IMG/VR virus record: IMGVR_UViG_2778261360_000011
Location: 1-5,197 of that record
Length of the DNA stretch: 5,197 bases
From: a virus
Taxonomy: Duplodnaviria; Heunggongvirae; Uroviricota; Caudoviricetes
Direction: 5' to 3' (one strand)
Position 1 is the stretch's first letter. Every line of letters starts with the position of its first letter. Under the pieces are notes generated by a model. It was given only the letters and a program-made list of their open reading frames with translations, was not told where the DNA came from and searched no databases. Made by a program: the position numbers and the translations under genes. Below, one piece after another: positions 1 to 5,062 of the stretch.

Positions 1-291
1 GAAGCAGAAAAAGCTTATTATGCTTCCATCGGAAACGATGATCTGGCAGCCTGAGTTCACAGATAAAATACTCTCCAGGAAACCCGGGGCGGTTCATCTT
101 TCGTAGCCAACTACTATGATGCGCTTGGAAACTACATCCGCAATCTTCGTGACCCGTCACGCCCACAGGATGCAGCAACAAAGAGTTATGTTGATGGGGT
201 TGCAGAAACAAACCTGAGCAGAACGCTACGAACTCCAGAACCGATATCAACTTTACCAGGCGTTGAGCAACGTAAGAATAAGATTGTTGCA

Positions 292-1815
292 ATGGATGAT
301 TCAGGAGACCCAATCATGGTTCTCCCGGAATCTGGGAGCGCTACTGATGTCATGTTGCAGCTTGCTGCCACCGATGGGTTTAAAAATATCGGTTCCTGCC
401 CTGATGTGGCCACATTAAGAAATACTGAACCTTCGTCAGTAAACCAGCAAATTATTGTCAGAGGTTATTATAGCGATACCCCCGGTCTTGGAGGTGGGGT
501 GTTCATGTCGTTTGGCAGTTCTGAAGCTGACGATGGTGTGAATATTTTTGTTACCCCCGGAGGTAAGCGCTGGAAGCGAACAGGAAGCCACATCGATATT
601 CCGGTAGAGAATGGCGGCATGATGGTGTCTAGGACGGCTGAGCAAAACAGTGAAGCCTTTGAACGTCTGACCGCATGCCTTCCATATGAAGGAGGTACGC
701 TCAGGCTCAATGGATTTTACGATATTAAGTATGGCGCTATCGTGCCTCCACGTGTCACGCTGGAGGGGTGCGGTATGGATTCCTGTGGATTAATTAAAAC
801 AGGTAACGATATTAAAACCGTTCCGGATCGCATGTGGCAGGGTGTACCACACAGCTTCTCCAAAGACTTTATTGTTGCGGTAGATATGGATAGTGACACA
901 TCAGGTGATTTAAGCGGGACACAAACAAGAAGCACCAGAATAATTGGATTGAGTATTCTAAATACTGCGCCAAATCCTTGTGATTACGGGATATATAGCG
1001 CTATCAGTTACAATGTGCGCCTTCAGGACCTGTATATTCATAGGGTGAAAACCGGTTATCGCACTAGTGATAGCTGGTTGCAGACATGGGCAAACATTAC
1101 TATTCAGGATGTCGTTACTGGAGTTAAAATCGAAGCAGGTGGAACCACATATAATTTAAACAATATTTATGTGAAAACATGTTCAGGTGTTGGATTCGAT
1201 CTTAAAAATCCGACATATAGCACAATGACAGGATGCGCTGTGGATTTTGCAAATGGAACCGCATATAAATTTGTGGATTGCACCGGGATTGTGTTAGATG
1301 GTTGTGGGTGCGAAGAAATAACAGGGACACAGATATATGCTCGGGGTTCTAGAATTTGTATTAATGGTTTTAGAGGGGTAAATCCAAAGAAAGGAGATGC
1401 AGAATCTTTTATACTTGATTCATCTGTAATTAATTTAAACTCATCTTATCTTCCTGATTATGTTGGAGGTGGTACAGATAAATACACCAAGATAAATGCG
1501 GCGGTGATAAATTCGAATAACTCTATATTTCCTGACCATGCAAACAATAAAATCACATGGGGCGGTGTTCAATCCATAATTAATATTCATGATGAAAGAG
1601 GTGGATACTCAGTAACAGGAAATTCAACGTATACTGTTCTTGGGAGGGTTGAGGGAGGGGTGATTACAATACTCTCTCTACTGCCACCTACGGGAGATGC
1701 TAATTTTTACCCAATTGGTACAAGGTGGGAGTTACTGTATCCATCGGCTGTAGGTCCGTACAAATGGATTTTGTTAGCGGATAAAATTTGGCGTGTTGCA
1801 GGATCATCATCGTAA
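292..1815 (+). CDS. Phage tailspike / tail-fiber receptor-binding protein, beta-helix type (probable polysaccharide-binding or depolymerase domain); 5' end unresolved
   Basis: ORF track 292-1815 (507 aa), stop TAA 1813-1815. Translation has the repetitive N/G/T/I-rich pattern typical of right-handed parallel beta-helix tailspike domains (e.g. NLNNIYVKTCSGVGFDLKNPTYSTMTGCAVDFANGTAYKFVDCTGIVLDGCGCEEITGTQIYARGSRICINGFRGVN), with an N-proximal GGGVF motif. Context fits: directly upstream of an O-antigen-modifying acyltransferase. ATG 292 has no Shine-Dalgarno sequence, and the same frame is open and protein-like back to position 67 (NYYDALGNYIRNLRDPSRPQDAATKSYVDG...) with no ATG/GTG/TTG, so 292 is probably not the true start. 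Confidence 0.7.
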   Translation: MDDSGDPIMVLPESGSATDVMLQLAATDGFKNIGSCPDVATLRNTEPSSVNQQIIVRGYYSDTPGLGGGVFMSFGSSEADDGVNIFVTPGGKRWKRTGSHIDIPVENGGMMVSRTAEQNSEAFERLTACLPYEGGTLRLNGFYDIKYGAIVPPRVTLEGCGMDSCGLIKTGNDIKTVPDRMWQGVPHSFSKDFIVAVDMDSDTSGDLSGTQTRSTRIIGLSILNTAPNPCDYGIYSAISYNVRLQDLYIHRVKTGYRTSDSWLQTWANITIQDVVTGVKIEAGGTTYNLNNIYVKTCSGVGFDLKNPTYSTMTGCAVDFANGTAYKFVDCTGIVLDGCGCEEITGTQIYARGSRICINGFRGVNPKKGDAESFILDSSVINLNSSYLPDYVGGGTDKYTKINAAVINSNNSIFPDHANNKITWGGVQSIINIHDERGGYSVTGNSTYTVLGRVEGGVITILSLLPPTGDANFYPIGTRWELLYPSAVGPYKWILLADKIWRVAGSSS

Positions 1816-1822
1816 AAATTAA

Positions 1823-1850
1823 TTGCCAAATTTAAATATACAGCTATTAT
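1823..1850 (+). promoter_or_regulatory. Candidate sigma70-type promoter for the acyltransferase gene
   Basis: TTGCCA at 1823-1828, a 16-nt spacer, then TATTAT at 1845-1850, about 30 nt upstream of ATG 1881 in the 65-nt gap after the tailspike stop. The region is very AT-rich, so a chance match is quite possible. Confidence 0.25.
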
Positions 1851-1880
1851 TTTGCACAATACTATGCATAGGTGCAAAAA

Positions 1881-2855
1881 ATGGATGAGAAAGTAATCAA
1901 TATTAGGGCCGTAGCTGCTATTATGGTTGTAGTTCTTCATATTAATTCGCAGTATTTTTATGACATTACGAGCTACTGGCCTGTTTTCGCTTTGATTGGT
2001 TCAGCAATGCGGCCATGCGTGCCTATTTTTATAATGATTTCAGGGTATTTATTGATAGGAAGAGTTATCAGTTCAATTGATTTTATGAAGAGAAGAATAT
2101 CAAGACTTCTTCCTCCAATATTATTTTGGGGGGTGTTTTATGTTTTTTTTGTATCATTTGTTGGAAACGCACAAGTTTCAATAAATTCACTCATGTCAAT
2201 ATTAATTGATCCTCCAATGTTTCATCTATGGTATCTTTATTTGATTGTTGGCGTTTATCTCATGATGCCTATTTTATCATCTTGGTATTTGTCGGCATCA
2301 TTTGGTGATAAGATTTTTTATATTTCGCTTTGGTTTGCATGCCTGCTTGTTGCTCAGTTTGGCCTTGGTGTTGAAATTATAAATAGATATTATCTTGGTC
2401 AATTTTCAACATACTCGTTTTATTTAATAGTGGGTGCTTTTGTTAAGGAAATTTCATTTAAGTACAATGTAAGATGGTCTGTTCCAAGCATGGTTTATAT
2501 TCTAATTACATTACTAATAACAACTCTTACGATTTATGACTGTTATAATAATGGAGCGCCGTCAGAGAAGTATTATGAATACACAAATCCAATGGTTGTT
2601 CTTCAATCAATATTTCTATTTATGGCGTTAATTAAGCTTAACAAATCAAATTGGTTTACAAAAGTTGTTTCAAATTATTCCCTTGGAGTTTATTGTGTTC
2701 ATGTTGCGATAATATTACTAATATTCCCTACAATAAAGACAACAATAGATAATGCATTCCTTTCATACTTTGCATCTATTTCTTTAGTTCTGATCTCATC
2801 AGTTATAATTAGCTCAATTATCAGATTGGTTCCTTTTATAAAAAGTGCATCGTGA
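1881..2855 (+). CDS. Acyltransferase family 3 (AT3) integral-membrane O-acyltransferase, probable phage-encoded O-antigen acetylase (serotype conversion)
   Basis: ORF track 1872-2855. ATG 1881 is preferred over GTG 1872 because AGGTG at 1869-1873 sits 7 nt upstream of it. The protein is strongly hydrophobic with about 10 predicted membrane-spanning segments. It carries an N-terminal R-x10-H motif (NIRAVAAIMVVVLH) and an xSGY/F motif (FIMISGYLLIG), both characteristic of AT3 acyltransferases such as phage O-antigen acetylases. It has no C-terminal SGNH domain. GC is roughly 25-32% in lines I counted by hand, far below the flanking lysis genes (about 53%). Confidence 0.85.
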   Translation: MDEKVINIRAVAAIMVVVLHINSQYFYDITSYWPVFALIGSAMRPCVPIFIMISGYLLIGRVISSIDFMKRRISRLLPPILFWGVFYVFFVSFVGNAQVSINSLMSILIDPPMFHLWYLYLIVGVYLMMPILSSWYLSASFGDKIFYISLWFACLLVAQFGLGVEIINRYYLGQFSTYSFYLIVGAFVKEISFKYNVRWSVPSMVYILITLLITTLTIYDCYNNGAPSEKYYEYTNPMVVLQSIFLFMALIKLNKSNWFTKVVSNYSLGVYCVHVAIILLIFPTIKTTIDNAFLSYFASISLVLISSVIISSIIRLVPFIKSAS

Positions 2856-3109
2856 GTGCTTTAGTTGCATGAGACAAAAGCGGGACACACAAGGCTTTGC
2901 ATTGGTAACTGAATCCTCTGTACCTATCACATTGTCGTGGCACCTTACAAAGTTAGGCATCAAAAGCCACGTCATAGCTATGGAGCCAGAAAACACCTCA
3001 CCTATTCAGAATGTTTTTAGGGATTTCAATTAAACCATATATGTATTAATTGTGTATGATGGACTCACCAACTAAGGTGGGTCTTTATGCACAGTAAACG
3101 GTGGTTTCT

Positions 3110-3514
3110 ATGTCAGTTCAACTAACCAGTGAAACATTAAATCAATGGCTTAGTCTTGGTTCTCTAGCTGCGGTGATAGCAGGAGTACCTCCAGAAGTAG
3201 CGTTGGGGTCTTTGTCAGGAGCGGTAATTTTTGTTACCTCTGCGGTAGAGTACCCAATTAGTCGTCGCGTACTCTTGTCGATGCTTAGCTTTCTCTGTGG
3301 GCTTCTTTTCTACAAACCAGCAGCATCAATTCTTATAGGCGTAGCTAGCCTGATCCCTACTATCACGCAGGACTCTTTCGAGAAAGGGGTTGTTTTCTCT
3401 GCTGGCGCATTCGTGTCAGCAATCGTCGCAGTACGAATTGGCATCTGGCTCTATCACCGTTCCGATAATCCACGTGAGTTAATTCCGGGGAGAAAAGACG
3501 ATGGCAACGTATGA
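3110..3514 (+). CDS. Small multi-pass membrane protein (134 aa), putative holin-like, antiholin or lysis-accessory protein
   Basis: ORF track 3101-3514 (GTG start). ATG 3110 is preferred because GGTGG at 3100-3104 sits 5 nt upstream. Four to five hydrophobic segments (WLSLGSLAAVIAGV, ALGSLSGAVIFVTSAV, VLLSMLSFLCGLLFY, AASILIGVASLIPTI, VVFSAGAFVSAIVAVRIGIWLY) and a charged C-terminus ([19 protein letters not shown]). Its stop (TGA 3512-3514) overlaps the next gene's start by 14 nt. Function is inferred from position and topology only. Confidence 0.5.
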   Translation: MSVQLTSETLNQWLSLGSLAAVIAGVPPEVALGSLSGAVIFVTSAVEYPISRRVLLSMLSFLCGLLFYKPAASILIGVASLIPTITQDSFEKGVVFSAGAFVSAIVAVRIGIWLYHRSDNPRELIPGRKDDGNV

Positions 3515-3809
3515 GCTTTTTTTTCTTATCACCAATGCAGTTATTTGTACTGGCATAGCAATTCGCGTTGTCACATTTCGGCGTAACGGGTCACAACACC
3601 GAAGATGGGGAGGGTGGCTTGCTTATTTCCTGATTGTTGCTGCGGCCAGTATTCCTGTTCGTGTCGCCTATGCAATCTGGTTACGCACGCCAATGGCTGT
3701 GGATTTATCTGAGGTCATTATCAACGCTGTCATGCTCGCTGCGGTTATTAAAACGCGCGGTAACGTCGTTCAAATTTTCAAAGTATCGAGGTCTAAACAT
3801 GGAGATTAA
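3501..3809 (+). CDS. Putative holin (102 aa, 2-3 transmembrane segments, basic C-terminal tail)
   Basis: ATG 3501 is preceded by GGGGAG at 3487-3492 with an 8-nt spacer. Hydrophobic segments [42 protein letters not shown] and [19 protein letters not shown], a basic loop ([11 protein letters not shown]) and a charged C-terminus (KVSRSKHGD). It lies immediately upstream of the endolysin and overlaps its start by 11 nt. Confidence 0.65.
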
Positions 3810-4344
3810 ACAATTCCAGCGAGCTGCTGGTATTAGCGAGGCGCTGGCCGCACGCTGGTTTCTGCATATCACTGCTGCCATGAATGAGTTTGGCATTATC
3901 AAACCAGATGACCAGGCGATGTTTATCGCGCAGGTCGGGCATGAGTCCGGAGGATTTACCCGGTTACAGGAAAACTTCAACTACAGCGTTAATGGACTGT
4001 CCGGGTTTATCCGTGCCGGACGCATCACGCCGGACCAGGCCAGCACGCTGGGACGAAAAGCATATGAGAAGTCTCTGCCTCTGGAGCGCCAGCGTGCGAT
4101 CGCCAATCTGGTGTACAGCAAACGCATGGGGAACAATGCCCCTGGTGATGGCTGGAATTACCGAGGGCGCGGACTTATCCAGATTACCGGTTTGAATAAC
4201 TATCGTGATTGCGGAAACGGCCTGAAGGTTGACCTGCTGGAGAGCCCTGAACTGCTGGCGCAGGACGAATATGCGGCTCGTAGCGCGGCGTGGTTCTTCG
4301 CCAGCAAAGGATGCATGAATATACCGGCGATATTGCACGTGTAA
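3799..4344 (+). CDS. Endolysin, glycoside hydrolase family 19 (class I chitinase-like lysozyme); as encoded the ORF is 3'-truncated by an apparent -1 frameshift
   Basis: ATG 3799 with GAGG at 3788-3791, 7 nt upstream. The 236-aa ORF 3634-4344 in the track is an upstream extension artefact that overlaps the holin out of frame. The protein has GH19 hallmarks: GHESGG with the likely catalytic Glu at residue 49, a second Glu nine residues later (LQENF), [12 protein letters not shown], and AAWFFASKG. There is no signal peptide or signal-anchor-release (SAR) segment. The frame ends at TAA 4342-4344 (181 aa), but the conserved GH19 C-terminal block ([18 protein letters not shown]...KVLAV) is encoded in the next frame from 4323 to TGA 4425-4427. 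Confidence 0.85.
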
Positions 4345-4423
4345 CTCTGATTATCAATGGTGGCCGGAACGGCATCGACGACCGGCGCGCGCGGTACATC
4401 ACTGCCAGTAAGGTGCTGGCGGT

Positions 4424-4906
4424 ATGATCTGGGCATTCGCAAAAGCATACTGGAAACAGTTGGTTATCATGGCGATGCTTGCTGTTCTGGTCATATCAGG
4501 AGTTGTAGCCTGGAATGCACACGGCAGTCGTCAGTACGATGCCGGGTATGCGCAGGCGAAGAAAGACCGCAAAGCTGAAGATGAGATAGTTCGTCAGCAC
4601 TACGAACAGGAGAAATCGATCAATGAACGTGAAGCGCAGCATAGGATCGACCAGGCGCGCAATGATGCTCTTGATGCTGCCGCTCGCGCTGGCCGGTTGC
4701 AGCAACAGCTCGTTGCCATCCGTGAGCAGCTCAGGCACTATAACGCCATTGTCGGCGCTGGGTCGTCAGCCGCAGACACCGGAGTTTTGCTTTCCGACGT
4801 GTTCAGCAAATCTCTCGAGAGAAATAGACAACTGGCAGAGTATGCTGACCGGGCATCCGAAGCCGGAAGAGTCTGCGAAAAACAGTACGACACCCTGACC
4901 AGATAG
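4424..4906 (+). CDS. Rz-like inner-membrane spanin (i-spanin)
   Basis: ATG 4424 is the first start after the in-frame stop at 4409-4411, with AAGGTG at 4410-4415 upstream. N-terminal transmembrane segment (LVIMAMLAVLVISGVVAW) followed by a long charged, coiled-coil-like periplasmic region rich in Q/R/E/A (RIDQARNDALDAAARAGRLQQQLVAIREQLR) and a C-proximal Cys. It sits last in the lysis cassette. Confidence 0.8.
   Translation: MIWAFAKAYWKQLVIMAMLAVLVISGVVAWNAHGSRQYDAGYAQAKKDRKAEDEIVRQHYEQEKSINEREAQHRIDQARNDALDAAARAGRLQQQLVAIREQLRHYNAIVGAGSSAADTGVLLSDVFSKSLERNRQLAEYADRASEAGRVCEKQYDTLTR
4623..4898 (+). CDS. Rz1-like outer-membrane lipoprotein spanin (o-spanin), fully embedded in the +1 frame of Rz
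   Basis: ORF 4623-4898 lies entirely inside the Rz gene in the +1 frame. AGGAG at 4607-4611 precedes ATG 4623. Signal peptide with a lipobox (MMLLMLPLALAG-C, then Ser at +2), and a Ser/Pro/Thr-rich mature part. Alternative starts are the ATGs at 4662 and 4665. Confidence 0.7.
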   Translation: MNVKRSIGSTRRAMMLLMLPLALAGCSNSSLPSVSSSGTITPLSALGRQPQTPEFCFPTCSANLSREIDNWQSMLTGHPKPEESAKNSTTP

Positions 4907-5062
4907 CATGGCATTTTTCACGGTACTGATTTCCGGTGACGGTATATAAAACGGTACGGGAAAAATTGAGATTTGGAAAAATGTTATCACTCAATTGGTT
5001 ATGGTTATCGTAAATAATTGAGTGGGAATGATTTGACCCTGCACTATGAATGAAATAAATAT

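Follow-up and report, generated by a model that had tools for sequence, protein, structure and literature searches.

The tailspike gene at the left end of the window (the whole stretch of DNA analysed, 5,197 nucleotides) is almost certainly broken by the insertion of IS629/IS1203 into a prophage tailspike gene, in a contig that starts inside the insertion sequence (IS). Four things were observed directly: which IS the end belongs to, where exactly the junction lies, that the sequence is collinear with intact genes, and that a complementary junction shows the target-site duplication. At 100% identity, the window equals the whole of contig NJZW01000081.1 (5197 bp; E. coli assembly GCA_002461335.1), which is reported from two samples, so that its left edge falls 96 bases short of the right end of the IS. 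The features discussed below, all on the plus strand, are the following.

1 to 96, plus strand: right (3') end of IS629/IS1203 (IS3 family), recognised by matches to E. coli IS copies; the contig starts inside the IS
1 to 54, plus strand: last 17 codons of the IS transposase (OrfAB/OrfB) and its stop TGA at 52-54; frame 1, EAEKAYYASIGNDDLAA and stop
72 to 96, plus strand: right terminal inverted repeat of the IS, ending ...GGTTCA and including CCCGGGG at 83-89
97 to 99, plus strand: right-hand copy of the 3-bp target-site duplication, TCT, from the comparison of junctions
97 to 1815, plus strand: 3' fragment of a phiV10/epsilon15-like tailspike gene, codons 129-700 and stop, its own start codon absent
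316 to 1815, plus strand: ORF called on the remnant, from internal Met 202 of the intact protein, with AGGAG at 303-307; 499 aa

Reading frames at the 5' end of the tailspike gene

The original prediction described a tailspike frame broken at its 5' end, and the letters bear out this description. In frame 1, bases 1-66 read EAEKAYYASIGNDDLAA, stop, VHR, stop; the translation confirms both stops (TGA at 52-54 and TAA at 64-66), and beyond them the frame is open up to the stop at 1813-1815. ATG, GTG and TTG are absent from frame 1 between 67 and 291, and the earliest start codon is the ATG at 292, which lacks a Shine-Dalgarno sequence upstream, as had been said. A second start was overlooked at the time, namely the ATG at 316, eight codons 3' of the first and with AGGAG at 303-307. 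The two codons correspond to Met 194 (ATG 292) and Met 202 (ATG 316) of the intact tailspike. The public gene call on NJZW01000081.1 spans 316-1815 (499 aa; WP_425535254.1, hypothetical protein [E. coli]). No exact match was found for the ORF from ATG 292 (507 aa), since ATG 316 is the start that gene callers choose.

Frame 2 has no stop between the window start and the TAG at 104-106, with ATGs at 20 and 38, and the CCCGGGG tract is located at 83-89, all as claimed. The chance of a stop-free run of 34 codons is about 0.2, so the openness of frame 2 is unremarkable and carries no information. Of the earlier account, the broken frame and the start-less remnant stand, while its preferred cause, a -1 shift at CCCGGGG, falls because bases 1-96 are IS sequence.

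Identity of the first 96 bases

Bases 1-600 were compared by megablast with 5,426 complete E. coli genomes, and the query divided in two: bases 1-96 matched IS copies, and bases 95/97-600 matched tail proteins of prophages. Bases 1-96 were found in 5,918-5,920 E. coli records, at about 23,850-23,900 places in the complete genomes, with an identity of 95-100% in some 5,900 records. The matching records annotate the equivalent of 1-96 as 'IS3-like element IS1203 family transposase'. In a spread sample of 60 records, most matches end at base 96 or, by chance, a few bases past it; the best-ranked IS matches extend as far as about 114. Four IS copies aligned with the window, situated in a baseplate gene, an O157:H7 island, a regulator gene and a Stx2 phage, are identical to it through base 96 save at base 69, and their flanks diverge right after. 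The window thus behaves as an IS copy does, almost identical to reference copies as far as the element reaches, with unrelated flanks beyond it.

Window bases 1-54 are identical to positions 3001-3054 of an E. coli MDR_56 locus (L003), in which the annotated IS1203 transposase CDS ends at 3054. Therefore, EAEKAYYASIGNDDLAA is the C-terminus of the transposase and the TGA at 52-54 is its stop. The CDS in MDR_56 is marked 'programmed frameshift', and the window has its last 17 codons, unchanged. The reverse complement of 72-96 agrees at 23 of 25 positions with the left end of the IS on a second contig, NJVI01000100.1 (L020; TGAACCGCCCCGGGAATCCTGGAGA), the first 14 positions of the inverted repeats being identical (TGAACCGCCCCGGG). 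The terminal repeats have the form 5'-TG ... CA-3', with ...GGTTCA at 91-96 on the right and TGAACC... on the left, in L020. The body of the IS is on neither contig.

IS1203 is an isoform of IS629, and IS629/IS1203 is among the most abundant IS elements in pathogenic E. coli; 62% of the IS629 copies in O157:H7 are located in prophages, and the element produces target-site duplications of 3-4 bp and has no sequence-specific target (PMC3271280). The insertion described here resembles IS629/IS1203 in E. coli and Shigella prophages in its terminal sequences (…CCCGGGGCGGTTCA / TGAACCGCCCCGGG…), the last 17 transposase codons, the size of the target duplication (3 bp) and its placement within a gene of a prophage. 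There is no mechanistic difference, and only the insertion site, tailspike codon 129, is specific to this case.

These results bear directly on the frameshift that had been proposed, in which deletion of one base or slippage within 67-103, for example at CCCGGGG (83-89), would join frame 2 to frame 1 in an ORF starting at ATG 20, at ATG 38 or further 5'. Such a shift is consistent with frame 2 being open over 2-103 and frame 1 from 67, and the endolysin gene in the window does have a real 1-bp deletion. However, bases 1-96, which are present as IS629/IS1203 at thousands of unrelated sites, are not tailspike in any frame. The supposed slippage tract belongs to the IS inverted repeat, of which it forms positions 8-14, and frame 2 upstream is non-coding IS sequence. 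A homology check across bases 1-400 had been suggested to see whether matches change frame near 70-100; those of tailspike homologues begin at base 95-97, with none upstream of this point in any frame. Moreover, the intact homologues carry 128 unrelated codons before the point equivalent to base 97. The probability of a frameshift origin is accordingly close to nil. The endolysin lesion had also been cited as a match in sense; that deletion exists, but it is an event unrelated to the break in the tailspike gene.

Collinearity with intact tailspike genes

Sequence to the right of base 96 continues an interrupted gene. Intact loci were found via the acyltransferase gene (1881-2855), which is unchanged on 23 public contigs, and ten loci are shown. 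In five of the ten (L007-L010 and L013) an intact prophage tailspike is called. Window 95-5054 aligns with these five at 93.6-99.5% identity (also given as 97-99.5%), and in each of them the tailspike is 700 aa long and encoded directly upstream of the acyltransferase gene. The intact protein starts MTVSTEVNHNEYTGNG / MTVSTEVNHNEYTGNGVTT... and reads ...SLALRKP / SFVANYYDALGN across the point equivalent to window 96/97. Window base 97 is nucleotide 385 of the intact gene, the first base of codon 129, in frame; therefore, codons 129-700 are in the window and 128 codons are missing. A more distant E. coli allele (L002) and phiV10 gene 25 (L001) show the same collinearity. Relative to the L009 allele, the fragment has 7 differences in 572 residues (98.8% protein identity).

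The conserved N-terminal domain (MTVSTEV.HNEYTGNGVTT...) is present in L007-L010, L013 and L020; the window, whose gene fragment begins only at codon 129, lacks it. Over its first 128 aa, the intact allele is identical to phiV10 gp25 at 115 of 128 positions. Continuity downstream and the beta-helix body mark the gene as a phiV10/epsilon15-like (Uetakevirus-type) tailspike. The precomputed Pfam assignment of the tailspike is PF27114 Phage_tail_beta, and the Beta_helix match on the fragment is below the cutoff.

The likeness to phiV10 gene 25 and to the epsilon15-like phages (Uetakevirus) extends to the DNA (76.8% identity over window 97-432) and to the neighbourhood, with large virion proteins upstream and an O-antigen-type acyltransferase, holins, GH19 endolysin and spanin downstream. 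In contrast, phiV10 has an unrelated receptor-binding C-terminal part (700 aa here versus 875 aa, the DNA match stopping at about 432), the acyltransferase gene is on the same strand as the tailspike gene here and on the opposite strand in phiV10, and the tailspike gene here is split by the IS. Residues 1-229 of the intact allele also match chain residues 1-237 of the Klebsiella phage depolymerase tailspikes Dpo31/Dpo36 (PDB 28lx, 28mg, 8ck1; E = 1.3e-27), whereas the catalytic and receptor-binding bodies have no sequence match. The IS therefore lies inside the conserved N-terminal region, and not at a module boundary.

Two further observations concern the same gene. Of the 26 substitutions that separate the window from its closest intact relative, L009, 17 fall in a 190-bp stretch of the tailspike gene (515-705), a distribution that suggests a small recombinant (mosaic) patch. 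Other draft contigs also start within this gene, at the equivalents of window 730 (L011/L016) and 864 (L012/L015). No IS sequence was found at these contig ends, and the breaks are likely due to the conserved N-terminal part being repeated in other prophages of those genomes.

Left junction and target-site duplication

From the 3-4 bp duplications of IS629 and the 3-bp target duplication (TCC) of the IS1203 copy in MDR_56, the left junction was predicted beforehand as ...AAG CCA TCT / TGA ACC..., with which a fragment of 129 codons would stop at the opening triplet of the IS. When the N-terminal 129 aa were used as a homology query, a protein (P0020) came up that is 100% identical over 88% of the query, ends ...SLALRKPS and is terminated by the TGA at the left end of the IS. 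It is encoded on NJVI01000100.1, a contig of 3829 bp in GCA_002460945.1 that is reported from four samples. The contig ends ...CTGCGCAAGCCATCT / TGAACCGCCCCGGGAATCCTGGAGAC..., with codons 1-128 and TCT followed by 76 bases of the IS left end (TGAACCGCCCCGGG...), and the prophage part of it shares 99.3% identity with the same prophage type. The sequences compared at the insertion point, with a slash at the IS boundary, are as follows.

Intact gene (L009): GCCA TCT TTCGTAG, with a single TCT
Left junction (L020): GCCATCT / TGAACCGCC
Right junction (window): GGTTCA / TCTTTCGTAG

TCT is thus present at both junctions, which come from two different assemblies, and once in the intact gene. Therefore, it is a 3-bp target-site duplication, within the range of 3-4 bp, and the event is a simple insertion. 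The start of orfA follows the IS left end in L020, so that the IS is co-oriented with the tailspike gene.

The original prediction had also offered a recombination junction that left a start-less remnant, and this was the closest of its alternatives, since both the junction and the remnant are real. The replacement of the receptor-binding module that went with it is rejected, because intact homologues have the two IS-flanking sequences side by side and the junctions carry TCT in duplicate.

The left junction is not in the window; it was found in GCA_002460945.1, and the window is from GCA_002461335.1. This would also fit an IS-mediated deletion or rearrangement, in which the IS stands at codon 129 and the 5' 128 codons, perhaps with more of the prophage, have been lost or moved in the genome of the window; IS629 is known to cause deletions next to the element (PMC9943667). 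Against this stands the complementary junction with its perfect TCT duplication, on a contig 99.3% identical to the same prophage type. With the left contig reported from four samples and the window contig from two, the simplest reading is one allele in related isolates, and a deletion is very unlikely.

A chimeric contig, in which the assembly joined an IS end to an intact tailspike gene, might be considered for a short contig with repeats at both ends. It would not, however, give matching junctions with a target-site duplication, and the same contig occurs in two samples and the complementary junction in four, at the same nucleotide and with the 3-bp duplication. Such an artefact can practically be dismissed.

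Several exact searches gave no match. Those for the predicted N-terminal fragments of 128, 129 and 138 aa, in two allele variants, were empty because of a 2-bp deletion in tailspike codons 16-17 of L020 (3412-3420, GGTGTTACG to GGTTACG), which shifts the called start; the fragment is consequently called from an internal ATG, as a protein of 114 aa. This deletion is a second, independent lesion in the same tailspike gene. The exact 29-mer spanning 96/97 was not found among the GTDB representative genomes, as expected for a set with one genome per species. The IS is absent from this site in the 5,426 complete E. coli genomes searched, where only two places cover at least 80% of bases 1-600, both beginning at 95-97 and without the IS.

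A related case may exist in a sister allele. Another E. coli protein (P0045, 114 aa) is a related tailspike N-terminal fragment ending ...FFAEVHEDVNRPGNPGD, in which the tail NRPGNPGD is a read-through of the IS629 left end (AAC CGC CCC GGG AAT CCT GGA GAC TAA). Judged from this sequence, it looks like an independent IS629 insertion near codon 105.

As for target choice, the IS1203 copy of E. coli MDR_56 sits on the opposite strand, in a baseplate gene that is unrelated, and its right flank (L003 3097-3114, TCCTTCATAGCCAACTAC) matches the flank at window 97-114 (TCTTTCGTAGCCAACTAC) at 16 of 18 positions, more than chance suggests. This likeness could indicate a weak target preference of IS629, although none is reported (PMC3271280). 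Apart from the MDR_56 case, a preference drawn from the best-ranked copies with TCTTTCGTAGCCAACTAC-like flanks was rejected as an effect of ranking, because most sampled copies stop at base 96 and no specific target is reported in the same study.

Ends of the contig

From about 5036-5055 to 5197 the contig consists of an IS200C end, which closes it on the right, and homology to the intact prophage loci ceases at 5054. Both ends of the contig are thus multicopy IS elements, which are the usual break points of short-read assemblies. Because IS629 is multicopy, the assembly broke inside it, and because the contig starts inside the IS, the sequence upstream looks like a frame-shifted continuation of the tailspike gene.

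Proposed course of events and consequences

In the proposed course of events, a copy of IS629/IS1203 transposed into the tailspike gene of a phiV10/epsilon15-like E. coli prophage, at the TCT of codon 129, with duplication of this triplet. The 700-codon gene was thereby split into a 5' piece of 129 codons, for which the opening TGA of the IS serves as stop codon, and a 3' piece of codons 129-700 without a start codon. Short-read assembly then broke within the multicopy IS629, leaving 96 IS bases on the contig.

With its N-terminal domain, which binds the virion, cut off from the beta-helix body, the tailspike is probably non-functional. The 5' fragment would yield nothing beyond the N-terminal region, and whatever the 3' fragment might produce would be missing the domain for attachment to the virion. 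A scan of window 1-400 for a sigma-70-like outward promoter found none.

IS629 can be excised in strains with the IS-excision enhancer (IEE). The insertion might on this ground act as a reversible switch, excision restoring the tailspike, or else the 3' fragment might yield a free protein from ATG 316, through read-through transcripts from the co-oriented IS and translation via AGGAG at 303-307. Either is a highly improbable outcome. If the second were true, a free, virion-independent O-antigen-binding or depolymerase protein would be made beside an intact O-antigen acyltransferase.

Other genes of the window were also inspected. In the endolysin gene (3799-4344) a G is missing at 4319/4320 (ATGAAGTATACC in L009 versus ATGAATATACC in the window), and this 1-bp deletion truncates the GH19 endolysin to 181 aa, versus 209 aa in intact prophages. 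Two metagenome contigs (L018 and L019) have the 181-aa allele as well. The genes for the acyltransferase and the two holins and the spanin-like gene are intact in the window. The acyltransferase (Acyl_transf_3, O-antigen type; 1881-2855) adjoins the broken tailspike gene, and its protein is identical on 23 public contigs, whereas phage genes nearby have lesions.

The prophage is probably decaying, and the pattern is that of familiar prophage decay with a conversion gene kept. The splitting of a prophage tail gene by IS629 is a kind of event already known, and only the insertion site appears to be new, among the genomes searched. For annotation, the 499-aa 'hypothetical protein' WP_425535254.1 represents part of a pseudogene, and the start of the contig inside an IS is what produces the apparent frameshift. 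One further IS629 hit in a prophage structural gene is thereby documented.
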